Below are positions 6,758 to 41,389 of a DNA stretch of 64,000 bases, piece after piece; position 1 is the stretch's first letter; each line of letters opens with the position of its first letter. The position numbers and the translations under genes were made by a program. The notes under the pieces were generated by a model. That model ran no database searches. It was given only the letters and a program-made list of their open reading frames with translations, and was not told where the DNA came from. Origin of the DNA: a virus. Taxonomy: Duplodnaviria > Caudoviricetes. The stretch spans positions 1 through 64,000 of the IMG/VR virus record IMGVR_UViG_2600255140_000004; one strand, 5' to 3'.

Positions 6758-7269
6758 AGTATCCCTCTTTTCCAGAAATTCTTTTCTACATTGTATCACA
6801 ACGTAGCTGGTTTGTGAACTATTCATTGTCTAAAGCCAATGGGTCAATGGGTGGTTTATTTATGAAATAAAAGTTATTCGATGGAGTGAGCGAAACAAGG
6901 AAGATAATATCGTTTTACTTTCAGCGTGATAATTAAAATCCTTTTGGATGCCACGGGCGGAATCCCGCTGTCGGCGGCGCGTAATGCGCCGTCTTTCGCG
7001 CTTGGAGGACGTTGCCTGTATTCTCTGCAATACGGGAGAACCGGGTTCCGAACCCATATTCCCGCGCCAATAAAACACAAATTTATTCTCTTTGTGGATT
7101 TTTATTCTTGATAACGGTATAGCTAGAAAAGGAAAGGCAGATGCTATTCCTATGTCTGAATAAACTTGTGGAACAAGAAAATGGAGTTAAACAGATTGAC
7201 GGATTAAAAAAAAAATCATATACTTATTATAATGGAAGGATACAATTTATAAGGAAGGGGGAAAAGCCC

Positions 7270-7764
7270 ATGATGAAAGGGATTGACGTTGCTCGGTATT
7301 TTCTTAGTCTTGATAAGAATGGCGAAATTTTCAACAAGATTCTTCGCACACAAAACGGAAGAACGTTTTATGAGGGAAATGCAAGGCTGAACAAGTATAT
7401 GCATTTGGCTCAGAATATTTATATTGCAAAATATGGCGCTCTGTTAATGGACTCGGTTTTCTACGCATATGACAATGGGGCAGTTGACCCTGTAGTACAG
7501 GAAAGCTATTCTGTACTTTTGGAGCGCCGGGATCAGGCGGTTTCCCTACAGGAAAGAGAACAACGATTTTTAGACAGTATATTCAAGGCTTTCTATAATG
7601 CGACGTTAGACGAACTGATTGAGTTATCCCATGAGGATTCAGAGTGGGTGGATAAACATGGGTATTACCGTAAGGAGGATCAGAAAATGGACTCCATGGC
7701 ACGGAAGGCAGAATATGAAAGACAGTATGCGGATATGATAAAAATTCTTGAGAGGATGGGTTGA
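7270..7764 (+). CDS. Panacea/SocA (DUF4065) antitoxin
   Basis: IDVARYF...RLNKYMHLAQ...FYAYDNGAV...ELSHEDSEW. Confidence 0.75.
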   Translation: MMKGIDVARYFLSLDKNGEIFNKILRTQNGRTFYEGNARLNKYMHLAQNIYIAKYGALLMDSVFYAYDNGAVDPVVQESYSVLLERRDQAVSLQEREQRFLDSIFKAFYNATLDELIELSHEDSEWVDKHGYYRKEDQKMDSMARKAEYERQYADMIKILERMG

Positions 7765-7767
7765 TGA

Positions 7768-8199
7768 ATGGATTTAGAAATCGGTCAAGTGATCTCTGCA
7801 AGGATACGATTTAATAATTTTGGTTTGAAATCTTCTTCAAAGCACCCATATCTAATAGTAGGGATAGATGAAGAGCTTAGGACGGTTGAGATTGCACAGC
7901 TTGATTCCCTGCAAGGGAAGGAATACAAAGCTGCTATGCGTTGCAATAAGGTCATATTTTGCGATGAACCTATAGAGACTGTTATTGACAGGGACAGCTA
8001 TGTGCAATTAGACAATACGTTTCGCGTGGAACTATATGATGGATTGACGAGGTATAGAAGACAGACAGATAAATTGAGTGAAGAAAAGTTGAAGGATGTT
8101 TTGAAAAGTTATCGGTCTTACCATGAAGTTCACCATATTGATGAAAATAAACAGGTCTATATGGATAGGGGAGAGTTCGAAAATTTACAGAATACATAA
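7768..8199 (+). CDS. PemK/MazF-like toxin
   Basis: IGQVISARIRF...KHPYLIV...SYVQLDN; 3 nt downstream of Panacea gene. Confidence 0.6.
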   Translation: MDLEIGQVISARIRFNNFGLKSSSKHPYLIVGIDEELRTVEIAQLDSLQGKEYKAAMRCNKVIFCDEPIETVIDRDSYVQLDNTFRVELYDGLTRYRRQTDKLSEEKLKDVLKSYRSYHEVHHIDENKQVYMDRGEFENLQNT

Positions 8200-8385: not shown

Positions 8386-8536
8386 CGATTTCCTTTAGTT
8401 CATCAAGTGATAATAACGGAACACACTCTGCAATTTCTTCAAGTGTCATTTTCCCCTTTTTTATTAATCTTTCTGCGGTTTCCCTCGCGTTGTTCAGTGC
8501 CGCTTCGTTCCTCATATCTTCCATAATTTTACACAT
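8386..8536 (-). pseudogene. C-terminal fragment of Rpn/PD-(D/E)XK family protein
   Basis: MCKIMEDMRNEA...AERLIKKGKMTLEEIAEC...LSLDELKEI; no nuclease domain and no SD. Confidence 0.55.
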
Positions 8537-8848
8537 GGTATATTGTTGCCAAATCAATCCCGTCACTTACTCGTGAGTTTATAGTGGAGTTAAGTAAAAA
8601 AATATTGCAGCCAAGCAATATTTAGTGGTTTCGGCAGCCAAAACTATCTGTAGGATTAAACTGTCTAATAAGCCGTGCTGGGTCTCGTCCTGCGCGGCTT
8701 ATGGAGGTATGGAGCGTAAAGCTTGTTCCTGCTGATTCCGGAAAAGGACTCCTTGGATGGGTTCTTTTTTTAGTTGCCGTTTTCAATCTTATTTTCACAA
8801 ATGACCAAATTATCCTTGAAAAGAAAATCATTAAAGGAGGATTTTGTC

Positions 8849-9541
8849 ATGAATGGAAAAAAGAAATTTGACAGAAACAAGGTACAGGGATTGATTGACA
8901 TGAAAGACTGGAAAGGACTGCGGGAATATGATTTCCGTGGTGTGGATCTGAGCAGTATGTACTTTTGGCAGGCGGAGCTTGACGGCATGGATTTTAGCGG
9001 GGCTGACCTTTATTGTGTGACCTTTAGCGGCACAACCCTGAAAAACGCGAATTTCAGGAACGCTTCCTTACGATGCGTGGATTTATGCAGTTCAATTATT
9101 GGTGGCGCAGATTTCCGTGGTGCGGATATTGCTAGGGTGGAATTCCCCGACATGTATATGGACGGGGTCATCATGGATGAGACGACATCCCACTTCCATA
9201 CGCATTGCCCGGAAGAGGGCGGGTTTACCGGCTATAAAAAGGCGTGTACCCTCACGGAACATCCGTATATTGTCGAGCTGAAGATCCCGGCACATGCCTT
9301 ACGTTCCAGTGCAACAACAAATAAATGCCGCTGTTCGGAAGCGGAAGTGATGTCCGTTACCCGCCTGGATGGCACAGACGATGGCACAGATATTGTGAGG
9401 AGCTGGTGGAACCCATATTTTCTGTATAAAGCCGGGGAAACAGTCAAAGCAGATGGTTTTGATGAAAACCGCTGGAACGAATGTGCTCCTGGTATCCACT
9501 TCTTCATGACGAGGGAAGAGGCTGTAGATTATGTTTTCTGA
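8849..9541 (+). CDS. Pentapeptide-repeat + DUF5758-like protein, copy 1
   Basis: A(D/N)(L/F)xx repeats; CPEEG.F.GYK...KCRCS...ECAPGIHFF.TREEA. Confidence 0.85.
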   Translation: MNGKKKFDRNKVQGLIDMKDWKGLREYDFRGVDLSSMYFWQAELDGMDFSGADLYCVTFSGTTLKNANFRNASLRCVDLCSSIIGGADFRGADIARVEFPDMYMDGVIMDETTSHFHTHCPEEGGFTGYKKACTLTEHPYIVELKIPAHALRSSATTNKCRCSEAEVMSVTRLDGTDDGTDIVRSWWNPYFLYKAGETVKADGFDENRWNECAPGIHFFMTREEAVDYVF

Positions 9542-9676
9542 ACATGTAAAAGAAGCCGAGAGGCTTCTTTTTTGCGCTTTTTTACAGATTACATACGATA
9601 ACAACTTATAACAGGAGGCATACAGGCAGACTTCATTTTTTGTATGCCTCTTTCATTTCATGAAGGAGGAAGAAAC

Positions 9677-10951
9677 ATGAGATTATGGGAAGGGAAAGAA
9701 CCGCAGGAGTTATTAAAAAGGCTACATGAGCTGGATGAACTCACGGGGATCGATTCGGTCATCCAGCCGGGCCAGAAGGTCACGGTCACTGCTACTGCGT
9801 ATGGGAGCGGGCTGTCACGCTGGACGGTGGATGCGGATGATGCGGCTTACCGCGCGCCAAAGATTGCGTCAGGAAGTAAGTTCGATCAGTTCTGCGCTGC
9901 TTTTGAAGGCATGACAGAAGAACTGGAGGCGGATATCTATTCCGTCCGTGTGCTGGCGTATGCGGATACCCAGCCGTACAGGACCTATGACGGGAAATTC
10001 ACTACGCGCTGGTTCAGCATCGATCCGCTTGACCCGTATAACGTGGATAAAAAGACCGGGCAGCCGGTGTTTAAGTTCGAGGAGCTTGTCATCACGCAGG
10101 AAGAGTACAGGATGATGATGGGAACAAAGCTTGCGATCAGGGCAGGAGATGCCGTTTACGCACTGCTGCGGGATGCGCTGATGTCTACAGGGCGCCTGCT
10201 CCTGGATTCCAGCTCTGTATTCAAACGTTCAGACGAGAACGCCCTTGGCTGCGGGATGATGCTTGCGGAGGCGCTTGCAGACCGGGATTCCCTCAAGGCA
10301 CTGACGAGGGGCTCTGGCAGCGGGGTGCGCCCTCTGCTGGCAGTCATGGGCAGCCGTTACAGGTACATCCCGCAGAGCGAGTTTTTTAAGGAAGTGTTCA
10401 AAAATATCGCGGGCTTTGGCATCTACCTGATCGAGAAGTGGTCCATTACGGACGAGCTTACAACTGTGCAGGCCGTGTTGCAGGGAGATCCGGAATACCA
10501 GAAGGGATTCCTTATAACTGCGAGCGATTTTAATGGTACCCCGATGAAGGTATCGGCATTTGGGCGGTTCCCTAACGGTGCAATGGTCGTGCTGAAACAG
10601 AGCAGCATGCTCCATAACAAGGCATCTGTGGACCGCGGCGTAAAATGCCTGTTTGACGGCATGGAAGAAGCGTTTGGGGAATTCGACCAGTTTATTGAAG
10701 ACATGGATGTTGATGCAGTGTTTGACGCAAAGGCCCACAAGAAATGGCTGAGGAATGTCCAGGACCTTATCGGGATGCGGCGTTGCCGCGTGCCTGAAAC
10801 TTTGGAGTGCAACGGGCTTGCGCTGGCAATGACGCTGGCAAAAGATTTAGACGCGGATATCCGCGACAGGAACGGACTCCTGTACAGCATATGGAACCTC
10901 TTGCTGGACATCCGTGGAGGATGTACAGGGAAACGTAAAGCAGCAGTCTAA
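9677..10951 (+). CDS. Hypothetical protein
   Basis: Long ORF with GGAGGA RBS. Confidence 0.7.
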   Translation: MRLWEGKEPQELLKRLHELDELTGIDSVIQPGQKVTVTATAYGSGLSRWTVDADDAAYRAPKIASGSKFDQFCAAFEGMTEELEADIYSVRVLAYADTQPYRTYDGKFTTRWFSIDPLDPYNVDKKTGQPVFKFEELVITQEEYRMMMGTKLAIRAGDAVYALLRDALMSTGRLLLDSSSVFKRSDENALGCGMMLAEALADRDSLKALTRGSGSGVRPLLAVMGSRYRYIPQSEFFKEVFKNIAGFGIYLIEKWSITDELTTVQAVLQGDPEYQKGFLITASDFNGTPMKVSAFGRFPNGAMVVLKQSSMLHNKASVDRGVKCLFDGMEEAFGEFDQFIEDMDVDAVFDAKAHKKWLRNVQDLIGMRRCRVPETLECNGLALAMTLAKDLDADIRDRNGLLYSIWNLLLDIRGGCTGKRKAAV

Positions 10952-18185: not shown

Positions 18186-18854
18186 ATGGATGAAAAAATG
18201 ACATTTGACAGGAACGAGGTAGAAAAACTGGTTGCGGCAAAAGACTGGAAAGGTCTGCTGGAATATGATTTCAGGGGTGCGGATCTAAGCGGAATGTGCT
18301 TTGGGGGTGCGGATCTTGCCGGTATAGATTTTAGCGGTGCCGATTTTAGTAATACGGATTTTCAGTGGGCATCTTTACGAAATGTAAATTTTTCGTCTTC
18401 ATTCCTTGAGGGTGCGGATTTCCGGGGCGCGGATATTACAGGCACATATTTCGCCGACGCATGCATGGACGGCATCATCATGGATGAAACGACATCTCAT
18501 TATCACACGCGTTGCCCGGAAGAGGGAGAATTTATTGGCTATAAACAAGTGCGTGACAATAAATACGGGCCATACATTGCTGAGCTGAAAATCCCAGCAC
18601 ATGCCTTGCGCTCCAGCGCAACCTCAAATAAATGCCGATGCTCGGAAGCAGAAGTGATGTCCATTACCCGTCTGGACGGTACAGACAATGGCATAGATAT
18701 TGTGAGGAGCTGGAGGAATCCAGATATTCTGTATAAAGTCGGGGAAATGGTCAAGGCAGACGGCTTTGATAGGAACCGCTGGCATGAATGCGCTCCTGGT
18801 ATCCATTTCTTCATGACCAGGGAAGAGGCTGTAGACTATATACTCTGGACATAA
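18186..18854 (+). CDS. Pentapeptide-repeat + DUF5758-like protein, copy 2
   Basis: Clear paralog of 8849-9541. Confidence 0.85.
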   Translation: MDEKMTFDRNEVEKLVAAKDWKGLLEYDFRGADLSGMCFGGADLAGIDFSGADFSNTDFQWASLRNVNFSSSFLEGADFRGADITGTYFADACMDGIIMDETTSHYHTRCPEEGEFIGYKQVRDNKYGPYIAELKIPAHALRSSATSNKCRCSEAEVMSITRLDGTDNGIDIVRSWRNPDILYKVGEMVKADGFDRNRWHECAPGIHFFMTREEAVDYILWT

Positions 18855-18935: not shown

Positions 18936-20540
18936 ATGAATTACAAACAGAGAAATGCAGCAGTGACGACAGTAGAAGAATGTGTGCTTATGCGCGCGGG
19001 CCTTGGCAGGCAAGATTTTTTTTGCCCGGAAGAAGAGCCGGAAATCCCGAATTTGAAGGAGGCAGTTGCTTTTTTTAGGGCAAATATGCAGCTTCCGGTT
19101 ACAGTAATCGGTGACTATGATGCAGACGGGATCTGCGGTACGGCAATCCTGTACCACGGGCTCAAACGGATGCAGAAAGAAGCGCGGCTCCGGATTCCGA
19201 AACGTTTCTCAGAAGGCTACGGTCTGTCGGAGAAGATCATAGACGAGATTGAGGCCCCTGGGCTTGTGATCACGGTAGATAACGGGATTGCCGCTTTGGA
19301 TGCGATAAAGAAAGCAAAAGAAAAAGGGCTTTCCGTTATCGTGATCGACCATCATGAGCCGGTCTGCAGGGATAACAAAGTAGTGCTGCCGTGCGCGGAT
19401 GTGGTTGTTGACCCAAAGACGGGCAATTCGTACAGGGATTACTGTGGAGCCGGGCTGGCATACCGGTTCGTGAAAGAACTCGTCGGCGGGGATATGAACA
19501 ACCTGCTTGTCCTTGCGGCAGTTGCAACGGTTGCGGATGTGATGCCCCTGACAGGCGCCAACCGTATCCTTGTGCGCCGCGGCATTGAGGCGCTTAACAA
19601 AGGCTATGGCGTTCCGGGGCTGAAAGCTCTGGCAGGAAACAACAAGAAAGAAGGGCATTTTGATGAGGGTGATTTCGGATTCTGGTTCGGTCCGATCTTT
19701 AACGCATACGGGCGATTGGAAGACGGTGGCGCGGCCAAGGTGCTGCGGTTGCTGACGATGGGGTACAATGACCCGAAAATGCCTGGCTGCGTCAGGATGC
19801 TGATGGAGATGAATGAACGCAGGAAAACACTTGCAAAAGAGCAGGCGGAGCTTGCCGAGGCGCTGATACAGGACATGGATGGAAACGCAGAACGCCCGAT
19901 CGTGGTTGGGGATTCCTTGTTCGATCCGGGAATTGTGGGTATCATTGCCGGGAAACTGGCAGAGAAATACTATTCCCCTGCAATCGTGTTCAGTGAAAAG
20001 GATGGGATGCTGAAAGGCTCCGGGCGCTCCATCCCAGGGGTGAGCCTTAAGGAAACGCTGGACCGGATCAGCGGCTTGATGCTCAGTTACGGCGGGCATA
20101 GTGGCGCTGCCGGACTTACAATACATGCTGAAGATTTTTTAAAGTTCAAAAGCGCGTTTGCAAAGAGCATTGGCAGGCTCCCAGATGTGCCGGATGTCAT
20201 GTATTATGACCTGGACCTTAAAAGGCATGAAATCCCTTATGTCATGGAACAGCAGAGGTCGCTCGCACCGTTTGGAGAGGGCAATCCGAAACCGGTGTTC
20301 CGCATAGTGTTCAATACAGCAGACTTCATTTATGCACGGATGGGCGATGGAACACACTTCTCACTGACGGAACGCAGCCAGGACGGTGCCCCGGCATTTT
20401 CTGTAGTCGGTTTTGGCATGGCAGGGATGTATGAAAAAATGAATCCCGAAAGGATTGAGTGCCTGGGATGCCTTAACGAAAACTGGTATAATGACAGGCT
20501 GTCCTATCAGTTTGAACTTGCGGCGTTTACTGGATTGTAA
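18936..20540 (+). CDS. recJ: RecJ ssDNA exonuclease
   Basis: GDYDADG, TVDNG, DHH, GGHSGAAG, PFGEGN. Confidence 0.92.
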   Translation: MNYKQRNAAVTTVEECVLMRAGLGRQDFFCPEEEPEIPNLKEAVAFFRANMQLPVTVIGDYDADGICGTAILYHGLKRMQKEARLRIPKRFSEGYGLSEKIIDEIEAPGLVITVDNGIAALDAIKKAKEKGLSVIVIDHHEPVCRDNKVVLPCADVVVDPKTGNSYRDYCGAGLAYRFVKELVGGDMNNLLVLAAVATVADVMPLTGANRILVRRGIEALNKGYGVPGLKALAGNNKKEGHFDEGDFGFWFGPIFNAYGRLEDGGAAKVLRLLTMGYNDPKMPGCVRMLMEMNERRKTLAKEQAELAEALIQDMDGNAERPIVVGDSLFDPGIVGIIAGKLAEKYYSPAIVFSEKDGMLKGSGRSIPGVSLKETLDRISGLMLSYGGHSGAAGLTIHAEDFLKFKSAFAKSIGRLPDVPDVMYYDLDLKRHEIPYVMEQQRSLAPFGEGNPKPVFRIVFNTADFIYARMGDGTHFSLTERSQDGAPAFSVVGFGMAGMYEKMNPERIECLGCLNENWYNDRLSYQFELAAFTGL

Positions 20541-22092: not shown

Positions 22093-22116
22093 GGCTGCCC
22101 AAAGGCAGCCTTATTT

Positions 22117-23529
22117 TTAGCGGAACTCAACGATGTAATTCAGGACAGTTGCTGATTCGTCGTAAAAGACAATCTCGTCATTGCGTAGCGCATTTCCAGC
22201 ATGTGCATGGAGGCAGTCCGCGCCTTTGCCGAGAGTTTCCGTGCGGTAGTTTATGCTGCCGCTCCATGTATGCACATCCCACGGCGTGCCGTAAGCAGTT
22301 GCATACAGGCCCATAAACGCGCAGTCATCATGCCCGTTTGCCCATGACGTGCCATGATAGCTCGTATAGTTCCATGATTTCATGGATGAGGGGGCAAAAT
22401 AAATGCCGTCGGAGAACATCTTGCCGGTAATGATAGCGTCTGGTTTCAGGAGAAGGCCATTCCGGATAATGGATATCCAGTTCTGGTTCCTTGACCCGTG
22501 CCAGAGCTGTTTCACTGTCTTGATGCCGTGCTTTTTCAGATATTGGTCGAAACGTGCCTGCTGTGCCTTCGGAATCACACGGTAAATGTTCTTCACTTTT
22601 GGACGAAGGGAGTCGGAAAGCTTTGAAAGCACCTGTTTTTTCTGTTTTTCCGTTGCCTCGTATACTTCAATGCCTGATGATTCGAAATCGTTTGGCATTG
22701 AGCCTTGATGCGTGGTCATGCCGTCCATGGCCATCAATAAGTCGCTTTCCCTCTGTAGGATTCGAGGGAAGTCGTTTGTGCTTTTTGCCATCAGGTCTCG
22801 GACTCCTGAACCGTCGCCTGTGCGTACAGGACGCTGCAGGATTGCGATCAGCTGCAGCAGTGAATCATTGAATTCTTCCGTGGTCTTCGCCGTCCGCATT
22901 TTCCCGATCAGTGATTCTGATTTTTTGAGGATTGCATGGGTGATCGGCACGCTGACACGCGCTTCCCTGACTGCTGTTTTGGAAAAACGCTGCAGGATTG
23001 CAAACAGTCTGGCAGATGCGCTTTCTGCCTGTTTCTCACATGTTTCTTCCGGCTTTTCAGGCTTGCGTGTCGTTGCATCAGGGGTAAGGTAGACATCTGA
23101 GTTGTCTATATACCCTTTGGAAAGTTTCTCATAATACTTGACCCAGAACATACTGAGAGGGTACATATAAGAGCGCTCTCCGAATAACGCACCTTTCGCT
23201 ACTCCCATGCGCCCGTATGATGCCTTGACTTCGTTGCCGCATGGCTCAAGCTTGTAGAACTTGTATGCATTCCGCCCTTCATCCACACAGGTCAGGTACC
23301 GGCTTGGGTATGAATCGTCAAGGATGCTGTCAGGGAGCGTGTTGCAGTTTTCGGTAATGAAACGTGTCCCGCTCCGTTCCCTGATTGAGTAATTGACTTC
23401 GCCTGCTGTGCCGCAGATTACCTTTACTGTTCCTGATGGCTCTTTGCTGAGCATGGCAGCAACATCTTTGTAAAAGTCCGTTACGTCCACTGTTTTCTGA
23501 GTTCCTTGTGTCTGGTAATAGATTTCCAT
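22117..23529 (-). CDS. WGR-domain PARP-family ADP-ribosyltransferase
   Basis: KFYKL...YGRMG (WGR-like); LWHGS; GKMFSDGIYFA; KSWNY; NDEIVFY; AAGGAGG RBS before ATG 23529. Confidence 0.85.
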   Translation of the reverse strand: MEIYYQTQGTQKTVDVTDFYKDVAAMLSKEPSGTVKVICGTAGEVNYSIRERSGTRFITENCNTLPDSILDDSYPSRYLTCVDEGRNAYKFYKLEPCGNEVKASYGRMGVAKGALFGERSYMYPLSMFWVKYYEKLSKGYIDNSDVYLTPDATTRKPEKPEETCEKQAESASARLFAILQRFSKTAVREARVSVPITHAILKKSESLIGKMRTAKTTEEFNDSLLQLIAILQRPVRTGDGSGVRDLMAKSTNDFPRILQRESDLLMAMDGMTTHQGSMPNDFESSGIEVYEATEKQKKQVLSKLSDSLRPKVKNIYRVIPKAQQARFDQYLKKHGIKTVKQLWHGSRNQNWISIIRNGLLLKPDAIITGKMFSDGIYFAPSSMKSWNYTSYHGTSWANGHDDCAFMGLYATAYGTPWDVHTWSGSINYRTETLGKGADCLHAHAGNALRNDEIVFYDESATVLNYIVEFR

Positions 23530-23574
23530 TTTCTTTTCCTCCTTTAATGATGTTTTTCTCTTCGAATCTGAGTA

Positions 23575-23800
23575 CAGGCAGACATTAAGATTCCCAAAAA
23601 AGAGCTGATCCAGGAATATGAAAACCGGGGAACGACGGACAGGATACGCAGCCTGCTCTATGCAGCAAAGGCATATTGGGATGAGCAGGGCATAGAACCG
23701 GGGAACACGGAGGATGTGATCCATGAAATCAACCGTCTGCATCCGGACTGGAAACTACATAAGGAAACGGAATGCAAGGTGTTCCCTGTGTGGATGTAGC
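23575..23800 (+). pseudogene. 5'-truncated gene remnant
   Basis: Open frame DIKIPKKELIQEYE...VFPVWM* with no start; abuts the PARP leader. Confidence 0.4.
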
Positions 23801-23942
23801 GTCATTGGGGATGATTCGGCGCAGAAAGCGCGCCCTTTATATATCTGTGATATCCTCTGAACAAAGGGAGTTTATATGGACGGGGAAATAACATCCGCCA
23901 TAGACGTACAGGGGTCCGTGAACCGGACGGAAAGGAGAACAA

Positions 23943-24902: not shown

Positions 24903-26045
24903 TTAACGGGCCGGCTCTTCTGAAATCTCTTCTTCCGGCTGCTCTTCGGTAACTTCAATCTCTATTTCCGGCATCAGGAGTTCCTCAACCCGTTCGGCAA
25001 GTTCGGGGGATTCCCCGCGCAGCAGCTCAAGGTTCTCCTGGATGCGGTCATATTCCTGGGATTTCCATGAAGAATCCTTTAATACCTGTAAGTCAAACTC
25101 GGCATCATGGATATCCCCGCGCAGGCTGTTCCGCTTTTTTTGAAGGAGTTCAATCTCGTATTCAATGTCAGCTCGTTTCTGTTTTAGTTTTGTGGAAGAA
25201 TCATGCAGTTCGCGCATGGTTTCATAAGCAAGCCGCTGTGTCGCATCCAGCTCCTTTTTAATCGCCTCCTGCTCCATGTTCCGCTGCCGTGCAAGCGTCT
25301 CCTGACCTTTCCTGCGCTCATCCAGTTCTTTTTTATAGGCTGCTGCCATCTGCGTTTTAAAATAATCTTTGGTGCGCTCAATATAATCCCCAAATCGTTC
25401 CCCTTGTTTTATGGCGGGTGCCTCAATGTTTTTATTGAGTGCGGCATAAAAACGCTTGATGTCCGTATGTTTGGCCCGGCTGTTCTGGATTCCGCGCTCA
25501 AGCCCGAACCTTTCCATATCCCTTGCGTAGGAACTCTGCATTTCAGTCAACTGGCTCGGCTTGCCCGTGAACCGCCTCGCGTTTAGTTTTCCCTGCTCGT
25601 CGATTGGCATGACCAGTGCATGGCAGTGGACATTTCCAGCCTCATCCCCGTGGTATACCATGCTCAGTACATTGCTCTTGCCGTCCGGGGCTACATCAAA
25701 AGTTTTTTTCAGCCATTCCGCATTCTGCTTTTTCCAATCTTCTACGTTTACTTCATTGATCCTCCCGCGGGAGAATGTTGTGACAATTTCGTAGGCGAGG
25801 ACAGCATTCTTGCGTACACTGTGTGTTTTGTAATAGTCCAGTTCCTTTATGCGCTGCTCCCATGCCTGTTTATAGCTCATCTGTTCTCCGTTCTCATTGG
25901 ATGGGAGGGGAATCACTTCGTGGTTCTGGTCCATCAGGCTTTTGTCTGCGTTTTTTACTTCTACTGTCCGATAGTTGTGCCGGTATCTGGCGCCCATATT
26001 TGAGAATGATTTTATCTTTTCGGTATGCATGAAACAATATGCCAT
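24903..26045 (-). CDS. mobV: MobV/Pre relaxase
   Basis: HNYR; RKNAVLAYE; HGDEAGNVHCH; GLERG...HTDIKRFY; coiled-coil C-terminus. Confidence 0.88.
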   Translation of the reverse strand: MAYCFMHTEKIKSFSNMGARYRHNYRTVEVKNADKSLMDQNHEVIPLPSNENGEQMSYKQAWEQRIKELDYYKTHSVRKNAVLAYEIVTTFSRGRINEVNVEDWKKQNAEWLKKTFDVAPDGKSNVLSMVYHGDEAGNVHCHALVMPIDEQGKLNARRFTGKPSQLTEMQSSYARDMERFGLERGIQNSRAKHTDIKRFYAALNKNIEAPAIKQGERFGDYIERTKDYFKTQMAAAYKKELDERRKGQETLARQRNMEQEAIKKELDATQRLAYETMRELHDSSTKLKQKRADIEYEIELLQKKRNSLRGDIHDAEFDLQVLKDSSWKSQEYDRIQENLELLRGESPELAERVEELLMPEIEIEVTEEQPEEEISEEPAR

Positions 26046-27468: not shown

Positions 27469-28023
27469 TTATTCTAATCCTTTAAATATCTCACCCAATG
27501 TCATTTTTATATGTGGAAATGTCTTTAAAGCAACTGCCTGTTCCACATTATAATCTTCGTCTTCTTTATCAGCCTGCAACATGTAACTATGTTCCAAGAC
27601 ATACCGCTTGTTTTCCAAATAATAAATTTCGACAGACCCCTGGGGTGAAACAATCCAATATTCCTCCACGCCCGATTGCTCATAAATGTCTTTTTTTATG
27701 GTCTTGTCGCGTTTTGCGGTAGAAGGGCTCAATGTCTCGGCAATAAATTTAGGGATTCCGCTATAAAAGCTGCCCTTCAGATGTTTCCTGTCACAAACGA
27801 CCATGATGTCTGGGCACAGATAGTCGTCGCTGATGCTTGGGTTATATTTAAAATCCAAATTCTCCATAAATACCAGGCAGAGACTATCTTTTAAGCCATT
27901 TCCGATAATTCTATGAAGATTACTGTTGATGATCCCATGCTTAAACCCTGGTGTTGGCGACATGTCATAAACCACACCATTAATTTTTTCATCTTTCTTC
28001 CGCTCGAATTCAGCTAATCCCAT
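27469..28023 (-). CDS. Uma2-family PD-(D/E)XK endonuclease
   Basis: PDIMVVCD...ETLSPST...D...K..IY...GVEEYWIVSP. Confidence 0.9.
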   Translation of the reverse strand: MGLAEFERKKDEKINGVVYDMSPTPGFKHGIINSNLHRIIGNGLKDSLCLVFMENLDFKYNPSISDDYLCPDIMVVCDRKHLKGSFYSGIPKFIAETLSPSTAKRDKTIKKDIYEQSGVEEYWIVSPQGSVEIYYLENKRYVLEHSYMLQADKEDEDYNVEQAVALKTFPHIKMTLGEIFKGLE

Positions 28024-28255
28024 GTGTTCACATCCTTTCTGGCTAAATTATACCATATCGGCATCTGTATTGAAAGATTTATCTAATGGATTGTCGGGAT
28101 GCGCGGTGAGGCTCTTAGCTTGCGAAACCAAACTTCGTTTCAGGACTGCACATAAATGTCTGCCGTGCCATGAATTGAAGAATTGTATATATTCGGCAAA
28201 TATGCTATTATGTCAGTAACCTTATTGTGCCTATTAAAACAAAGATGGTGATGAT

Positions 28256-28936
28256 GTGAAACAAAATAATATGACGATTGGTAAAGTTTCCGCTATAATA
28301 GCATTAATTTCAGCAATAATTGGCATATTAGCGAATTTAGCAGGAATAACAGAGTTTGTGTTAAAAATGAGGGATAGATATGGGCCAGGCTCAGCGCAGA
28401 CATCGGAAATATCAGAAGAAGAGCCGGGAAAAAAGCAAACAGATGATATTAAAAGGAATGTATACAGTATTGACGAGAATGGGAAAATAACGTTTGTTCA
28501 AGGAACAGAGATTGTTTTAAGAGTGAAGAATAATGAGGGACTTGTAACGACAGATAGTAGAGGTTATCTACAAGGGAAAGGCTCTGAAATAAATTCTGAC
28601 AGTATTTATCAAATACACAATACGCCAGATGATTATAGCGGGTTACAAGGTGTATATGGATTTGTCAGGGTGGCGGCAGATGAAGATAATGCGCCTGTTT
28701 ATGAAAATGCTGATGAAATCCAGTCATGGGAATGCTTTGAATTTTTCAAACATAATGAATATGTTTATATTAAGAGCCAGGCGAATGATAAATACATAAC
28801 ATGCGTTCTGGATGAAGAGGGAGACAGGCTTTGTGCGAGGGGGGAAGAGGTACAGGAGTGGGAATTGTTTTCTGTGTACATACGGGATAAAAAGAAATGG
28901 AAGAATATTTTTACTGATGAAAAAATGGAGTTTTAG
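28256..28936 (+). CDS. Membrane-anchored protein with fascin-like beta-trefoil
   Basis: N-terminal TM; repeats IQSWECFEF / VQEWELFSV; IKSQANDKYI. Confidence 0.6.
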   Translation: MKQNNMTIGKVSAIIALISAIIGILANLAGITEFVLKMRDRYGPGSAQTSEISEEEPGKKQTDDIKRNVYSIDENGKITFVQGTEIVLRVKNNEGLVTTDSRGYLQGKGSEINSDSIYQIHNTPDDYSGLQGVYGFVRVAADEDNAPVYENADEIQSWECFEFFKHNEYVYIKSQANDKYITCVLDEEGDRLCARGEEVQEWELFSVYIRDKKKWKNIFTDEKMEF

Positions 28937-29992
28937 GACATTTTTGCCAACCGTCAATATCTGATGGTTGTTTTTTTGTCCGAATTTGTAATTCATGCTG
29001 TACCATTGTCCGGATTTGTTTCTCAATTAAATATGTTTTAATTCCACATCTTTAAAAGTAGGATGTTTCGCCCACGGAATAGCACCAAAAGCTACCGTAG
29101 CATCTGGTAAAAGTAGCTATCCTCTCTCGTTGAATTTTTTAAACAGATTTTTATAATCCATTCTCAGCACATCCTTTCAAATTTTATTGACAGTGTTCCT
29201 GCCTACTAATATCACAATAATAAGCACAAAATTTGAATTATAAAAAATCGCTGAATAAATAACAGAGCCAGTAAGCAGTGAGGGATTCTCACTTGCTACT
29301 GGCTCTGCGTTCTTTTAATGGGGTATTAGGGGCAAAAGTCCCTAACAAGCGAATTTGGATAACCAAATTCAGTGTTTGGTAAGACAAAACTTATTCAACT
29401 ATTGTTAGCTATTTTTTCAGAAATATCATGTGCGATTACATTATAAACCCACCTTTTACCTTTGTTTCTCGTCGCAATATTTGATATTATAATCATAATA
29501 ATTAAAAATCCAATATAATATATGTTGAATAAAACTATTTCAGAAATAATACACAATGTAATGTAAATTAAATTTTATATCTATTTTTAGATTATCCACA
29601 TAAATACTATGTTTTCAAGTATTTTGAAGTATAGAAAATCATTCATTTTACCACGAATTTACCACGATTGATTGAGCCTTGATATGACAATAAAATAGCG
29701 CTAAAAAGACACCCTTAACTTAAGCGGTGTCTTTTTATGTACGGATATGAAATTGTCAAACTGAGATTTGTACTTCTGAACAGCTTGGATTTATCTATTT
29801 CACGATAAATCTATAAATTGCATAGGCAACCCATATAATCCAAGAAAAAAACCACAAATCAAAGAGAATACTTATTGTTAAATAAACGATAGCAACAGCG
29901 ATTGCTATTATCCAATTTTTCTTTTTAGTATATTCCATAATCAACCACCTCCACAACTGCAAATCTATCCCAGTTATATAAACTGGGATTTG

Positions 29993-30673
29993 TCAATGAA
30001 TCACCTCATAGCGTAATCTAAGATACGAGTTCTCCAAAACTACACATTCTTGCAACTTCACAACACCCAATTTTGATAATTCGCATTCTTCTGTCAAAGA
30101 CTTTCCATCAATTAGAGTAGAAGTATCCTTGCCGCCAATCAAAACAGGTGCAATAATAATATCTACATAATCAAACAGCTTTTCACGAAGAAATAAGTTA
30201 TTCAATGTTCCTCCAGTCTGGATTGTTATTCTCTCACAACCATATTCCGATTTAAGTTTTATAAGTGCATCTTTTAAGGATAATTCATTTTGGTATATGA
30301 TATGAAGATTTTCATCCTCTACGTTAAAGGCAGGATGTCTTGTATTCGTCGTAATCAGCACAAACTCTTTTGATAAAGCACAAAAATAGCGAATACCATT
30401 TTCATTCAAATGTTTATTATCAATTACAACAAAGGAAACCGGTGTTTTCCTTGGTATTTTCTTTTTATTTACTCCCATTTTTTCTTGCACTCTACCCGAG
30501 TTGAAAGACCACAAATCTGTTGTCTGCTCTATTTCGTAATATTGGTGTAATCCCTCATTAACGCCTTTAATTTTAGGAAAATCCTTATCTACATCCAAAT
30601 CATCTGTTGCACCAGTACTTATTTTCCCATCAACAGACATTAGCATAAACAATGTTGTAATAGGTCTATCCAT
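29993..30673 (-). CDS. RibD C-terminal/DHFR-family reductase (IME cargo)
   Basis: MSVDGKIS...TGGTLN...IAPVLIGG. Confidence 0.85.
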   Translation of the reverse strand: MDRPITTLFMLMSVDGKISTGATDDLDVDKDFPKIKGVNEGLHQYYEIEQTTDLWSFNSGRVQEKMGVNKKKIPRKTPVSFVVIDNKHLNENGIRYFCALSKEFVLITTNTRHPAFNVEDENLHIIYQNELSLKDALIKLKSEYGCERITIQTGGTLNNLFLREKLFDYVDIIIAPVLIGGKDTSTLIDGKSLTEECELSKLGVVKLQECVVLENSYLRLRYEVIH

Positions 30674-30838
30674 TTTATCTTTCCTCCACAAATTCCAATT
30701 CGCTTTCTTCATATCCATATTATAACAGTTCCATATATCCGCCACAACAAAAATCAGCATACCCTTTGATATTTTTCTGCCTTGAAAATGCACACTTCTT
30801 TCTTCCTCTTGATTACCCAACACAGAAAAGAAAAAAGG

Positions 30839-31474
30839 CTACTCGTCCTCATTATCAAAATGATTATTCCTTAATACTTCCCGTAACAGTTCCATATCTT
30901 CTTTTGAATTGGGGTTTATCATTTTTACAACCTGATAAGGCGTACCGTACTTGTGTCCGTCTGTGCTTTCCCCAAACATATCCATGCTGTATAAATCATC
31001 ATAGCGGTTTAATATTTTCTGAAATTTCAAGTGCTGGATAAATTCCTTGATAGGGTAAAGGTCGGACGCTTGTATCTCCGTTCCGTTGATATAGTCTGTG
31101 ATGTATTTCCGCAACTGTTCCAGCTCATACTCCAGCCATTCTTCTTCGCTGTCAAAGAAGTTATCATAGTGTCCATGTTTCAACTCTGCATTTAGGCGTT
31201 CTTCCGTCCTTAAAAACTGGCAGACTTCCTTTTCGGCTTGATTAACATACTTCCATTTTCCCGACAATAATTCATTGGGCGTTACTCCCAGCACGTCCAT
31301 TATCTTTTCCAGCGTATCAAAGGTAGGATAGTTTACCCCTCTTTCAATCTTGGAAAGGCTCTGCATATTGATACCGATTTTGTCCGCAAGCTCCTGCTGT
31401 TTCATTTTCCTGTGTTTTCTTATGGTCTGTATGTTCTCTCCTAAGAAAATCATTTTCTTTATATAACCCTCCAT
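30839..31474 (-). CDS. XRE-family HTH regulator
   Basis: IRKHRKMKQQELADKIGI...SKIERG. Confidence 0.9.
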   Translation of the reverse strand: MEGYIKKMIFLGENIQTIRKHRKMKQQELADKIGINMQSLSKIERGVNYPTFDTLEKIMDVLGVTPNELLSGKWKYVNQAEKEVCQFLRTEERLNAELKHGHYDNFFDSEEEWLEYELEQLRKYITDYINGTEIQASDLYPIKEFIQHLKFQKILNRYDDLYSMDMFGESTDGHKYGTPYQVVKMINPNSKEDMELLREVLRNNHFDNEDE

Positions 31475-31802
31475 AACTTAGTATAACCGCTCCTTTCGTT
31501 GCTTTTCTTTCTGTTTATAAGCCTATCATACTTATTTTATTTTGAAAAGTCAATAAAAACTTCTTGACAAGTAATCCTGCTGGCGTTATTATCGTATCAG
31601 ATGAAGTGATTAAGCACGCTAGGGTCAATCACACACTTGAGTAAGCATATAGATGAGTTGTTTTCGCTTTGACAGCATGAACAGGCATGGACTATCAGAC
31701 CGAAAATCATGGTTTCCAAAAGGGGCTGGCTGGACGGGACACGTCCCCCAGACGTGTTTCGGACAGACAGTTCCTTTTGGAAAGGGAACGCCTTTAGGCG
31801 TT

Positions 31803-31834
31803 CGCAGAGGGCGTATATGTAACACCGCCCTGCG
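31803..31834 (+). other. Candidate MOBT oriT/nic hairpin
   Basis: CGCAG(A)GGGCG-TATATGTAACAC-CGCCCTGCG upstream of the relaxase; TAAC in loop as in Tn916-type nic sites. Confidence 0.5.
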
Positions 31835-31839
31835 TATAC

Positions 31840-33024
31840 ATGTCATGGTACCTAGAAACTGTGATAAATAAAGGAAAAAATGCAATTTATACCCCGCAAA
31901 AAAATCGGGAAGTACGAAAGGAGAAATGCACTATAACTACACACGAAAATTTATCCGTTAAGATTGATTACATCAGCATTGTATTTGAAACTACAACAGC
32001 AGAAGATGTTATCATGCACATTTTAGGTTTACCGACTGATATTTTCAATGTCTATCCAGCAACCGTAAAATTCAAGACCTATCAGACACGCTGGGAGATT
32101 GGGGATATTTATGTATCGGGGGACGCAAAAAAGACAGAGGACAACCCACAGGGACTTGGCTGTTATCTCGTCATGACAGGAAAAGGCTGTGATGATATTT
32201 TCCGTATCCTTGAAGATAAGGGCTTGACCTTTGGAGATATGTTCGGACGCTGTGAGCGAAGATATGGACTGGATAACTTCCATTTCACAAGACTTGATAT
32301 TGCCATTGACGATAAGAACGAAAATCCATTCTTTACCATTGAGCAGATAAAGAAGAAATGCGAAAAAGAGGAATTTATCTCAAACAGTGAGGGCTATAAG
32401 TTTGACGAAAGCAAGTTTGATGATTTCGACACCGCAAAGACTGTCTATATCGGAGCTGGAAAATCGGGATTGTCCTACCGCTTTTATGACAAGGATAAGG
32501 AAGTCTGTTCCAAGTATAATAAGTCGCTTGATGAAGTGGGGAGCTGGAAACGGACAGAAATGCAACTGCGTGACGAAAAGGCTCATGCCTTTGCCATGAC
32601 ATTCAAGGACAGACCGCTGGAACTTGGGGAACTGGCTTTCGGACTGCTGGCAAACAACCTGCGCTTTGTCGTGCCAAACAGAAATGAAAGCAATAAGAGC
32701 AGATGGAAAACGTGTCGGTTTTGGGAACGCTTTTTAGGGGCTGTGGAAGTCTTGAAACTGCAAGTACCAAAACAGCATAATTCCCTTGAAGAAACACAGC
32801 AATGGCTCACAGAGGGTGGCGTGATTTCAGCGGTCAAAAGTTTTTACTTCTTGGAAGAACATGACGCATTAGGTGGACTGGAAAAAGTGGGAACTATGCT
32901 GGATAAGGCAAGATACAGCAACTCCCTTTCCAGTAAACTAACTGCTCATTTACAGAGGATTGACCGCACCGACCTTATCCCCTATATCCAGTATGACACG
33001 AAACATGGGAAAGGGGGTATCTGA
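31840..33024 (+). CDS. Rep_trans/MOBT relaxase
   Basis: [30 protein letters not shown]. Confidence 0.9.
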
Positions 33025-33227
33025 TGAACAGCAACGATATTCCTGTATGGGAAAAATACACCCTTACCATTGAAGAAGCGTCAAAGTATTTCCGTATCGG
33101 AGAAAACAAGTTAAGACGCTTGGCAGAGGAAAACAAGGACGCTGGCTGGCTCATTATGAACGGCAACCGCATACAGATTAAACGCCGACAGTTTGAACAA
33201 GTTATTGACAAACTGGAGGCAATCTAA
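33024..33227 (+). CDS. xis: Tn916-like excisionase
   Basis: [26 protein letters not shown]. Confidence 0.93.
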
Positions 33228-33305
33228 TGCAAATGAGCCTTGTATGTGTTATGATGAGCACAAGTCATATCAAGGCTCTTTCCAACAGGGAAAGGAGCAG
33301 ACACC

Positions 33306-34499
33306 ATGAAAGAAAAAAGACGGGATAGCAAAGGACGTATCCTGCATACTGGAGAGAGCCAACGAACAGACGGGAAATACTTATATAAATATGTGGACGC
33401 ATTTGGAAACACAAAATATGTGTATGCCTGGAGATTGACACCCACAGACCCGACACCAAAGGGAAAACGGGAAAAACCCTCGCTCCGAGAACTGGAACAG
33501 CAGATAAGACGGGATATGGAGGACGGTATCGACAGCACAGGCAAGAAAATGACGCTTTGCCAGCTCTACGCCAAACAGAACGCACAGAGGGCAAACGTGA
33601 AGAAAAGCACACAGAAACAACGGGAACAGCTCATGCGGTTATTGAAAGAGGACAAGCTGGGTGCTAGGAGCATTGATACGATAAAACCCTCTGACGCTAA
33701 GGAATGGGCGTTACGCATGAAAGAAAAGGGCTTTTCCTACAATACCATTAACAACCATAAACGCTCGTTAAAAGCGTCATTCTATATCGCCATACAGGAC
33801 GATTGTGTGAGGAAGAACCCTTTTGATTTCAAGCTGAGTGAAGTCCTAGAAAATGATACGAAAGAGAAAGTCGCATTGACAGAGGAACAGGAACAAGCCT
33901 TACTGTCATTCATCAAAACGGACAACGTGTATCACAAGTATTATGATGATGTGCTGATACTGTTAAAGACTGGACTTCGTATCTCGGAATTGTGCGGACT
34001 GACAGTAGCCGATATTGATTTCAAGAATGAGGTTGTGGTTATCGACCACCAGTTATTAAAAAGCAAGGAACAGGGCTATTATATTGAAACGCCTAAGACA
34101 AAGAACGGAATAAGGCAAGTTCCATTAAGCAGAGAAACGATACAGGCATTTCAACGGGTCATAAGGAAACGCACAAAAGGGAAACTGATAGAGATAGACG
34201 GATACAAAGATTTTCTGTTCATCAATCCGAAAGGCAATCCCAAAGTGGCGATTGATTACAACGCCTTATTTGTCCGTATGGTAAAGAAATACAACAAACA
34301 CCACGAGGACAATCCCCTGCCACATATCACACCGCATACGCTACGCCATACGTTCTGCACGAGATTGGCAGGCAGGAACATGAACCCGAAAGATTTACAG
34401 TATATCATGGGGCATTCAAACATCAGTATCACAATGAACTGGTACGCTCATGCGTCCATAGATACCGCAAAATCAGAGGTTCAGCGTCTAATCGCATAG
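33306..34499 (+). CDS. int: Tn916-like tyrosine integrase
   Basis: KRRDSKGRIL.TGESQR.DG; TGLRISE; HTLRHT; MGH..I..T..WY. Confidence 0.95.
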   Translation: MKEKRRDSKGRILHTGESQRTDGKYLYKYVDAFGNTKYVYAWRLTPTDPTPKGKREKPSLRELEQQIRRDMEDGIDSTGKKMTLCQLYAKQNAQRANVKKSTQKQREQLMRLLKEDKLGARSIDTIKPSDAKEWALRMKEKGFSYNTINNHKRSLKASFYIAIQDDCVRKNPFDFKLSEVLENDTKEKVALTEEQEQALLSFIKTDNVYHKYYDDVLILLKTGLRISELCGLTVADIDFKNEVVVIDHQLLKSKEQGYYIETPKTKNGIRQVPLSRETIQAFQRVIRKRTKGKLIEIDGYKDFLFINPKGNPKVAIDYNALFVRMVKKYNKHHEDNPLPHITPHTLRHTFCTRLAGRNMNPKDLQYIMGHSNISITMNWYAHASIDTAKSEVQRLIA

Positions 34500-35433
34500 A
34501 AGTATTTACCACGATTTTAACCACGTTTGATAGAGAAAATATAAGAAGATAGACCTAGATATATGAGGTTTACCGCAAATGCAAAATGCCCGTAGAGCCC
34601 ATAAAATAAGGCTTTGCGGACATTTGAGAAGATATAAAAAGATAGTCAAAAAGACATATATAATTTGTAATTGAAAAATATATTAATAGTTGATATAAAA
34701 ATATCTCTACATAATCTAAAATCCTTGGCAGAAGTTGTGACCATTTCTATATCTCTGTACTGGTGATATATATGATACCATTGCTGATTTTGGTATATCT
34801 TTCTCCCCTTTTTATCTTCGGGCATCTGTGCAAAAACATCTTTATAATATTTTTCTACATCAGTATTGGAAAATCTTATATCACTTTTTTTCTTTTTAAT
34901 AGAATCAAAAATGGTTTGCCCTGGTTCATCGGTAAATAGAAATACAAGAGTTCTTTTTAAATCACTTCCGTAAACTGAATCAAGGACAAATACAAAGGCA
35001 TAAATTGATGAAGAAATAATGGCAACATTCAATAAATCTATAACAAATTGTAAGATGCTAATATCATCTTTGTTAAGAATACCGCTAATTCCATTAGTTG
35101 TAATAAAATACATTAAAATGGCGGCAATAACATAACTTTTTAATTCGTTATCTCTATAATTTTTCATAATATATAGCAACCTCCATCACTATTTTTAACA
35201 TAAGTATATTATATTTTTTCTACAAATTCTATACGTTATAAAAAAATTTTAAAATTCATTTTCTACAAAAAATCATATCCAACCATCTTCACAAATCTTC
35301 TAAAACGTCACAAGGAACACTTCCTTATGTGAAGCGTCTCTTCGGGCGTCTCTTTTTTTTGCAGAAAAAATCTTGTTTCAGAGCTGTATGTAAATGTCTG
35401 CCGTGCCATGATAAGGAAAAAGGAGGCAGGCAA

Positions 35434-41255: not shown

Positions 41256-41306
41256 TGGAGCAGATGAATATTCAGATATGTGTTTTAGCTTGAAAAAAAC
41301 AAAAAA

Positions 41307-41380
41307 TGGAAGCAATGGGGCTCGAACCCATGACCTCTCGCGTGTGAGGCGAACGCTCATCCCGGCTGAGCTATGCTTCC
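41307..41380 (-). tRNA. tRNA-Val(CAC)
   Basis: GGAAGCA/TGCTTCC acceptor; GCTC/GAGC D-stem; TTCGC-CTCACAC-GCGAG anticodon arm; ATGGG-TTCGAGC-CCCAT T-arm; no encoded CCA. Confidence 0.93.
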
Positions 41381-41389
41381 ATACCTGTA

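Follow-up and report, generated by a model that had tools for sequence, protein, structure and literature searches.

A PARP1/2/3-like ADP-ribosyl transferase gene with an intact catalytic triad on a very large integrated conjugative element of a mouse-gut bacterium

The DNA analysed here, termed the window, is a stretch of 64,000 nucleotides (IMG/VR record IMGVR_UViG_2600255140_000004, positions 1 to 64,000), which corresponds to positions 405736-469735 of contig C2 in a 4.46-Mb genome (G000) that is 98.7% complete. A gene on its minus strand (22117-23529) encodes a PARP1/2/3-like ADP-ribosyl transferase (ART) with an intact His-Tyr-Glu (H-Y-E) triad, for which enzyme activity is predicted, and the gene is cargo of a very large conjugative element that is integrated in the genome of a mouse-gut bacterium. 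By analogy with characterized PARPs, we favour on balance a PARP-type transferase that is activated by DNA breaks and serves the DNA transactions of the element itself. None of the three functions offered in a first-pass annotation of the window (defence, anti-defence, and transfer-coupled repair) has been demonstrated, and whatever goes beyond a conserved enzyme on a mobile element is inferred.

The ART catalytic domain (residues 287-470; 22120-22671, minus strand) has been identified by Pfam, phmmer, a 39-sequence alignment, and Foldseek. The Pfam family PF00644 (PARP) matches with an E-value of 4.5e-16 and 59.4 bits against a cut-off of 26.7, over residues 308-390 only, and a six-frame search of the genome agrees. 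Searching the sequences of the PDB with phmmer retrieves the PARP2 and PARP1 catalytic domains at an E-value of about 3e-10, and a profile of 39 homologues strengthens the PARP match to 7e-17. In the phmmer alignment to PARP2, LWHGSR stands opposite LWHGSR, GIYFAPSSMKSWNY stands opposite GIYFADMSSKSANY, and the GIYFA and KS.NY motifs are paired. The four catalytic motifs of the first-pass annotation are all present: LWHGS holds H344 (22498-22500), GIYFA holds Y377 (22399-22401), MKSWNY holds K384 (22378-22380) together with S385 and Y388, and NDEIVFY holds E452 (22174-22176), the codon positions having been checked on the minus strand. H344, G345, S346, Y377, K384, S385, Y388, and E452 are invariant in 39/39 sequences of the alignment, which consists of the window PARP and homologues 47-72% identical to it.

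The structural evidence is in line with these matches. Foldseek comparison of the AlphaFold2 (AF2) model with the PDB gives 379 matches at E <= 0.001; among the matches listed, all are PARP1-4 chains, and the catalytic-domain chains reach template-modelling (TM) scores of up to 0.68. E452 is located in the last strands of the ART domain, which superpose on the PARP catalytic chains, the Pfam alignment having already ended at residue 390. No NCBIfam family matches the protein, and no fused or longer forms have been found at E <= 1e-10 among proteins of 824-2350 amino acids, which is weak evidence. The triad had also been taken as support for polymer synthesis; this does not follow, as H-Y-E is no proof of it, and whether the product is mono-, oligo-, or poly-ADP-ribose cannot be read from the sequence.

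The AF2 model of the whole protein has a mean pLDDT (predicted local distance difference test) of 85 and a pTM (predicted TM score) of 0.79, and it consists of four folded parts and one disordered linker: an N-terminal beta-rich part (1-63), a WGR-sized part (77-137), the linker (152-167), five helices (171-271), and the ART domain (287-470). The ten best Foldseek matches are PARP1 and PARP2 chains bound to DNA breaks and comprising the WGR, helical (HD), and ART domains (E 1.6e-16 to 4.4e-15, probability 1.00, 468-503 aligned columns), and chains with HD and ART align over about 350 columns. The WGR domain (residues 77-140; 23110-23301, minus strand) carries a YGR motif, Y105 G106 R107, at 23209-23217. 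Residues N87, Y89, K90, Y92, Y105, G106, R107, W129, K131, Y132, and Y140 are invariant in the 39-sequence alignment, forming three invariant patches in an alpha+beta domain of WGR size directly before the helical domain. In bacterial PARPs, three co-varying WGR stretches have been described, with a tyrosine mostly replacing the first tryptophan of the WGR motif (PMC5966428; this and the other papers below are cited from part of their text). The WGR assignment is based on the agreement of the invariant patches and the YGR motif with this pattern. The 39-homologue profile aligns the pre-catalytic region colinearly with the PARP2 WGR domain, that first stretch not being significant alone, and relatives do pass the Pfam WGR cut-off (PF05406 in 13/120 among the homologues listed; the PARP at 8519-9733 of related locus L015 scores 27.6 bits). 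The helical domain (residues 171-271; 22717-23019, minus strand) is formed, by AF2 secondary structure, by five helices (171-189, 198-212, 217-231, 242-246, and 251-271) in the position of the PARP regulatory domain. By analogy with the DNA-bound PARPs that it matches, the protein is probably activated by DNA breaks.

The extra N-terminal domain, estimated in the first-pass annotation at about 80 residues, is seen in the model as a domain of about 76 residues, which we term the pre-WGR domain (residues 1-76; 23302-23529, minus strand). Modelled alone by AF2 (pLDDT 90), it has a beta-beta-alpha-beta-beta-beta topology. Foldseek finds nothing in the PDB at E <= 0.001, the best Z of a wide VIA-align search is 5.7, within the range that the tool calls common, and the ESM Atlas gives no usable match; therefore, the domain has no recognisable fold, but it is not claimed as a new one. 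A profile of 12 copies matches 103 proteins at E <= 0.001 among 1.84 billion representatives. The match is N-terminal in all but three long repeat proteins, 37/103 of the proteins are 431-521 amino acids long, and a WGR domain directly follows in 16 of the 28 shorter matches scanned. Based on this placement, the pre-WGR domain is a PARP-specific module. It occupies the place where PARP1-3 carry their own DNA-binding N-termini.

The gene, identified from its open reading frame (ORF), translation, and Pfam PARP match, comprises 470 codons and a TAA stop codon (22117-22119). The longest ATG-initiated ORF on this strand is 22117-23742 (541 amino acids), and the frame is open from 23754; the product itself is taken as 470 amino acids, beginning at the ATG at 23527-23529. 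This start, also chosen in the first-pass annotation, is credible because a Shine-Dalgarno sequence, AAGGAGG (23538-23544, minus strand; sequence and pattern scan), lies 8 nt upstream and all aligned homologues (38/38) begin at the methionine encoded at 23529, the 71 codons further upstream having no counterpart there. The gene had been said to use the leader of the backbone genes. What the gene has in common with them is only the generic AAGGAGG-N8-ATG arrangement, for which a pattern scan of the window gives 10 sites where 0.18 are expected, and the 24-nt leader itself occurs once in the window. Promoter and terminator scans around the gene perform no better than shuffles.

Sequence words of the PARP ORF are present in mouse-gut metagenomes and metatranscriptomic libraries. 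The ORF is covered by contigs of four RNA runs from three studies at >=95% identity, for example by a 1070-nt contig over 22120-23188; these contigs attest presence in the libraries and are not proof of transcription, DNA carry-over being possible, and they give no strand, ends, or level. In runs X16 and X18, some of the flanking bins are uncovered although the PARP is covered, an absence that does not count as evidence. In RNA run X17, two contigs lose their match exactly at 22096/22097, between the stop of a small plus-strand ORF (22092) and the PARP stop codon (22117), and the remainder of each is unrelated sequence. The PARP cassette may thus have different neighbouring DNA in other strains, a hint that is weak with one contig per side.

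Bacterial PARPs had been called rare; the homologues of the window PARP form 659 clusters at E <= 1e-3, a sizeable family. Nor is the kind new, clostridial WGR-PARP_cat proteins, with a helical domain seen by modelling, having been reported in 2014 and 2018. Perina et al. 2014 (PMC4245714) list 28 bacterial PARPs, most with WGR and PARP domains and 27/28 with H-Y-E, ascribe them to horizontal transfer, and include Clostridium citroniae, Butyrivibrio proteoclasticus, and Eubacterium rectale. Garcia-Saura et al. 2018 (PMC5966428) treat 72 sequences, in which Clade 1 comprises Cytophagales and Clostridiales with WGR and PARP_cat, no defined PARP_reg, and a modelled helical domain. In our genome scan the close relatives are Bacillota and the next group is Cytophagales/Saprospiraceae at 27-30% identity, which mirrors Clade 1; thus, the window PARP is a member of a described kind, and the published 72 sequences may already include its close relatives. 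Its distribution is patchy: the gene has been found in 0/12 other genomes of the genus, 0/24 other genera of the family, and 1/24 genomes of the other families of the order.

Plasmids and phages carry relatives too: 22 plasmid records, each between 100 kb and 1.2 Mb in size and each typed as non-mobilizable, and 16 phage records of 137-595 kb. WGR-PARP genes thus recur as cargo of large replicons. The text of PMC5966428 nowhere uses the words mobile, plasmid, transpos-, or prophage, and literature searches for bacterial PARPs in anti-phage, conjugative, or leading-region contexts yielded nothing specific, save for a few jumbo phages encoding PARPs.

A maximum-likelihood tree of 32 PARPs separates a short-form clade from a long-form clade. 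The short-form clade (10 rows; support of 86 in the Shimodaira-Hasegawa-like approximate likelihood ratio test, SH-aLRT) consists of proteins of 402-438 amino acids without the N-terminal domain, and 9/10 have an adjacent macrodomain gene. In the long-form clade (12 rows, SH-aLRT 100), a macrodomain gene is found within 5 kb in only one member, and here the window PARP groups with the PARPs of loci L005 and L010 (SH-aLRT 100). In Oscillospiraceae the macro-PARP pair is found among housekeeping genes (ATP synthase, riboflavin, GluRS). Tandem PARP paralogues have been observed in L006 (9073-12041), L007 (7196-11371), and L015 (8519-11290), with a short form adjoining a long form in both L007 and L015. 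L006 has an intact copy immediately preceded by a split one, whose WGR-bearing and ART parts form two separate ORFs.

The macrodomain gene, of about 145 amino acids, is the one conserved partner found by ORF clustering. It is present in 12/25 related loci and lies immediately upstream of PARP in 9, and 5/6 of the PARP-linked copies scanned reach the Pfam Macro cut-off. Other erasers of ADP-ribosylation are also found near relatives: locus L026 (9570-12601) holds macro-PARP-ARH in Lacrimispora amygdalina, and in L014 (5616-11347) a microbial PARG lies 3.5 kb from a long-form PARP that is followed by UvrD. This pairing with macro, ARH, and PARG genes fits reversible signalling. The long form has lost the adjacent eraser.

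The genome of the window has been searched in six frames with hidden Markov models (HMMs) of PF05028, PF10021, PF08719, PF03747, and Macro. The absence of PARG and macrodomain genes from the window, noted in the first-pass annotation, is borne out. In the whole genome, as in the window, PARG, ARH, and NADAR remain negative, and there are three Macro matches, all outside the window and one of them on the same element. PF10021 was not found, its search having worked on a Deinococcus control; PF05028 was not found either, a weak negative, as that search detected none of its controls. PARP and PARG in the same genome, the complete bacterial poly(ADP-ribose) (PAR) system, have thus not been found here. 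The macrodomain gene of the element (C2 355294-356019, equivalent to L088 5294-6019), 72 kb from PARP, encodes a DarG-like macrodomain fused to a DpnD/PcfM-like domain. It is the only macro gene of its own genome that matches the PARP-linked macros, being 48% identical to the copy beside the tandem PARPs of L015, from a Butyrivibrio metagenome-assembled genome (MAG), and 26-29% identical to the adjacent type, and it matches the PADLOC DarG model (E 5.6e-18). Judged by sequence, this macrodomain is a candidate eraser for the PARP and could equally have an anti-DarT function unrelated to it.

The genes within 5 kb of PARP have been compared in 22 related loci and the window, a descriptive count with no background control, and DNA-metabolism genes are present in 10 of these 23 neighbourhoods. 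A RecJ-like exonuclease of the backbone (18936-20540, plus strand; Pfam DHH/DHHA1/RecJ_OB) lies 1.6 kb from the window PARP; RecJ is also found within 5 kb in L007 and at 7 kb in L006 (38-41% identity by tblastn in L006 and L007). A UvrD-type helicase gene directly follows PARP in L014, and in L016 (6873-11239, Clostridium porci) the stop of a UvrD-like helicase gene overlaps the PARP start. Ligase genes directly precede the macro-PARP pair in L019 (3761-11194; DnaE-ERCC4-LigA-macro-PARP in a Treponema-labelled MAG, with an NAD-dependent ligase) and in L020 (an ATP-dependent ligase). SbcD has been found in L012, a Y-family polymerase in L010, TopB in L030, and SSB in L018. A conserved operon for the long form was considered and dropped, as all-against-all clustering of the ORFs within 5 kb in 25 loci and the window gave families of at least three for PARPs and macro genes only. 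On gene content, these neighbourhoods lean towards DNA strand-break metabolism and a repair- or replication-coupled role over a defence that drains NAD+.

The host element extends from about 330000 to 494938 on contig C2, with nearly all genes on the plus strand, as judged from Pfam matches in the window and in about 100 kb of surrounding sequence. Since it runs from a coupling protein gene at C2 330 kb to an integrase gene at 493676-494938, it is at least 165 kb long, which is a lower bound, as the left end has not been found; the earlier placement of the gene on a mobile element is thereby confirmed. The upstream end of the scanned region, at C2 330 kb, encodes a VirD4-type coupling protein and a cell-wall hydrolase by Pfam, and between it and the window are genes for an actin-like segregation protein, toxin-antitoxin pairs, a group II intron, and an SSB-like protein. 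The window contributes a TQ-ester adhesin, an RNase T-like exonuclease, a ClpX-like ATPase, RecD2, RecJ, orphan Dam and Dcm methylases, FEN, UvrD, a signal peptidase, and DnaN, and downstream of it are a sortase, a SecY-like protein, an NAD-dependent ligase (LigA), a sigma factor, DnaE, a second RecD-like helicase (RecD2), and ParB. The Tn916-type integrase gene forms the terminus of the element and is followed by housekeeping genes (IF3, L20, TrpRS or TyrRS). A tRNA-Val gene (window 41306-41381) lies within the element.

The PARP gene belongs to a minus-strand block (22.1-28.0 kb) that also encodes an Api92-like protein, a Mob_Pre (MOBV-type) relaxase, and an Uma2-family nuclease. The relaxase gene (24903-26045, minus strand; Pfam E 3.8e-25; Shine-Dalgarno-supported start at 26045) is on the same strand as PARP and 1.4 kb from it, so that the reported nearness to a relaxase is correct. 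Mob_Pre is also found near PARP in the two closest genome loci, L005 and L010, in differing orientations; a Mob_Pre-PARP operon has been rejected on these grounds, and the association is taken as a shared element type. Next to the block is a 7.2-kb integrative mobilizable element (IME; 28174-35411, 37.5% GC), bounded by 44-nt direct repeats (28130-28173 and 35368-35411) that are 82% identical with a 21-nt identical core. It carries genes for a RibD_C protein, an HTH regulator, a Rep_trans (MOBT-type) protein, and a Tn916-type integrase. PARP adjoins this IME but is not part of it, and no convincing direct repeats surround the PARP block, the sole good pair (44 nt, 82%) being the one that delimits the IME. 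A 75-codon open frame between the PARP start and the Api92-like gene (23572-23799, plus strand) has a protein-like composition and no ATG, GTG, or TTG start, and it is followed by a terminator-like hairpin (23818-23834). No relative of it has been found in the genome, in the related loci, or among longer proteins, and it may represent the 3' end of a backbone gene that an insertion has truncated.

Several other genes of the element have been noted. The Uma2-family nuclease gene (27469-28023, minus strand) matches the PADLOC candidate PDC-S03 (E 1.7e-48), and a 367-amino-acid protein (5131-6234, minus strand), adjoined by an AAA_17 kinase-like gene, matches the candidate PDC-M11A (E 8.4e-64); both are candidate defence cargo. 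Five paralogues with pentapeptide repeats and DUF5758, all on the plus strand, are located at window 8774-9541 and 18186-18854, L087 4568-5497, and L088 3698-4426 and 4513-5202. Pentapeptide proteins are able to mimic DNA, and these paralogues may be anti-restriction or anti-nuclease factors. At 7141-8199 (plus strand), a SocA/Panacea-domain protein of 207 amino acids is directly followed by an unannotated ORF of 143 amino acids, which is the layout of a Panacea antitoxin with its toxin.

The mechanism that we favour is modelled on PARP1-3 and on the DNA-dependent Herpetosiphon enzyme, with which the protein is homologous. A DNA nick or end would be bound by the WGR domain, probably with the aid of the clade-specific N-terminal domain, and this binding would loosen the autoinhibitory helical domain. 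The H-Y-E active site would then use NAD+ to ADP-ribosylate the enzyme itself and nearby proteins. The gene is single-gene accessory cargo of an element with its own replication and repair set, and the role of the PARP would be to signal or handle strand breaks in transfer, second-strand synthesis, rolling-circle or theta replication, excision, or integration. Erasure would fall to macrodomain proteins from other loci, the DarG/TARG1-like protein on the element and two in the chromosome.

Several observations weigh against this proposal. No PARG, ARH, or NADAR has been found in the genome by the six-frame HMM searches, and no eraser is adjacent to PARP. The gene runs antisense to the backbone, and the stretch around it is variable, with the inserted IME and candidate defence genes alongside. 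No neighbour is conserved across the long-form clade; the link with repair genes is descriptive, such genes being abundant on large mobile elements in any case. On the protein itself, the Pfam WGR family (PF05406) remains below its cut-off (16.2 bits against 22, E 0.012, residues 77-113), so that the WGR domain of the first-pass annotation stands by its invariant patches, its YGR motif, and the Foldseek WGR chains and not by Pfam. Pfam PARP_reg (PF02877) gives no match at E <= 1, the state reported for the whole of Clade 1 (PMC5966428), and the helical region seen at first pass is upheld by the five AF2 helices and the HD-ART alignments. The assignment of E452 as the catalytic glutamate is indirect, being based on the structure match and on invariance and not on a residue-level alignment. 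H-Y-E is also present in PARP4, deposited as a mono-ADP-ribosyltransferase among the PDB sequence matches, and PARP3, another H-Y-E enzyme, is mono-ADP-ribosylating (bioRxiv 10.64898/2026.10.17.759577). Finally, in the parts of PMC5966428 and PMC8120803 cited here, the active bacterial PARPs are those of Herpetosiphon and C. difficile CD160 only, both in Clade 2, and no Clade 1 member has been assayed.

The readings have been ranked with break-activated ADP-ribosylation for the element first, followed by NAD+-drain defence, anti-defence, and decay, an order based on the neighbourhoods and the eraser pairing set against the defence evidence for and against. Abortive-infection defence, which we consider rather unlikely, would make the protein a one-gene sensor and effector, in which phage DNA ends trigger runaway (auto)ADP-ribosylation and the drain of NAD+ stops the infected cell. 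NAD+ depletion is a common abortive-infection logic. The patchy distribution of the gene is consistent with this idea, as are its carriage as single-gene cargo with no conserved neighbour in the clade and no adjacent eraser, the lack of PARG, ARH, and NADAR in the genome, and its place in a variable antisense block with Uma2 (PDC-S03, E 1.7e-48) and in the same window as the PDC-M11A candidate. However, the protein matches 0/5027 PADLOC-DB 2.0.0 models at E <= 0.001, and large phages themselves encode relatives. Erasers accompany the sister clade, whose genes in Oscillospiraceae lie amid housekeeping genes; this fits reversible signalling better than suicide. In addition, ligase, UvrD, and RecJ genes recur beside relatives.

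A role in anti-defence or host takeover is doubtful, and less probable than defence. Here the PARP would be made early in the recipient and would let the incoming DNA of the element survive by ADP-ribosylating host nucleases, defence proteins, or DNA ends. Relatives or the gene itself are carried by a giant integrative and conjugative element (ICE), megaplasmids, and jumbo phages, and modification of host proteins has been proposed for the PARPs of jumbo phages (PMC7824862). In addition, PARP is close to the relaxase gene, and the element is rich in putative anti-restriction genes (orphan Dam/Dcm, the five pentapeptide-DUF5758 genes, and the DarG-like macro with its PcfM-like domain). Against this, PARP is antisense to the co-oriented backbone genes. 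A break-sensing WGR domain and an autoinhibitory helical domain are not what a constitutive effector needs, and the chromosomal, housekeeping-embedded sister clade speaks against a purely invasive role of the family.

The weakest alternative, a functionally decayed gene or a merely mono-ADP-ribosylating passenger without break sensing, is highly improbable. In its favour, only Clade 2 bacterial PARPs have been shown to be active (PMC5966428, PMC8120803), the Pfam WGR match is below cut-off with no PARP_reg match, and H-Y-E is insufficient for polymer synthesis; against it, the frame is intact with a strong Shine-Dalgarno sequence, the catalytic and WGR signature residues are invariant in 39 sequences down to 47% identity, the AF2 model is confident, and the ORF is found in RNA-library contigs of three studies.

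Within break-activated ADP-ribosylation for the element, a more specific proposal is tentative. The PARP may be the break sensor of the element's own nick and gap repair kit, together with NAD-ligase, RecJ, UvrD, FEN, and DnaE, in which the pre-WGR domain would tune the DNA end that is sensed and the DarG/TARG1-like macrodomain would act as eraser. If this is true, prokaryotes would have an equivalent of the eukaryotic PARP1-ligase single-strand-break pathway and bacterial PARPs their first physiological role, and it would suggest that large mobile replicons, not cells, maintain the WGR-HD-ART module in prokaryotes. The locus offers a concrete setting for these questions: a conserved, intact enzyme, a defined element, a cultivable-type mouse-gut Firmicute, and a candidate eraser on the element. 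A natural comparison is that of the long form, which has the extra N-terminal domain, lacks an adjacent eraser, and is found on mobile elements, with the short form, which has a macrodomain gene next to it and is often chromosomal. Settling repair versus defence versus counter-defence would reveal the purpose of PARP-type break sensing outside eukaryotes.

Among known systems, DarT/DarG likewise combines an ART acting at DNA with a macrodomain eraser, and the macro of the element matches the DarG model. However, DarT is a small ART of another family, without WGR or HD, and the PARP and macro genes are 72 kb apart here; the DarT models of PADLOC match none of the proteins tested. The PARPs of large phages (Cellulophaga phi4:1 and phi17:2, Xanthomonas XacN1, and Klebsiella and Stenotrophomonas jumbo phages) have a homologous ART and are likewise cargo of large replicons. 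The Cellulophaga phage PARPs align over 84% of the window PARP at about 24% identity, whereas most phage matches cover only the ART part, 28-40% of the protein.

Human PARP1, PARP2, and PARP3 have the same domain order and give the best structural matches, and the H and Y motifs are nearly identical to those of PARP2. By contrast, the window PARP is 15-19% identical to them overall, has no zinc fingers or BRCT domain, has an unlike N-terminal domain, a helical domain too divergent for PARP_reg, and YGR in place of WGR, and is encoded by a prokaryotic mobile element. The PARPs of Herpetosiphon aurantiacus and Clostridioides difficile CD160 also have the WGR-helical-ART architecture with H-Y-E (PMC5966428, PMC8120803); the Herpetosiphon enzyme needs DNA and makes PAR, and the C. 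difficile enzyme is active (PMC5966428, PMC8120803). These two belong to Clade 2 and have a canonical PARP_reg and a genomic PARG, none of which has been found for the window PARP.

The Clade 1 bacterial PARPs (PMC5966428, PMC4245714) share with the window PARP the same architecture, the H-Y-E triad, and YGR for WGR. The pairing of Clostridiales with Cytophagales in PMC5966428 matches the Firmicutes relatives and the Cytophagales/Saprospiraceae group at 27-30% identity found here, and Butyrivibrio proteoclasticus, on the PMC4245714 list, is the best plasmid match to the window PARP (30.5% identity). Carriage on a conjugative element, the ~76-residue pre-WGR domain, and the division into a short form with a linked macro gene and a long form do not appear in the cited parts of these two papers. 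Giant-ICE carriage, the PARP-specific N-terminal domain, and the contrast between macro-linked and macro-less clades are thus the additions, modest ones, that the present analysis makes to the described kind.

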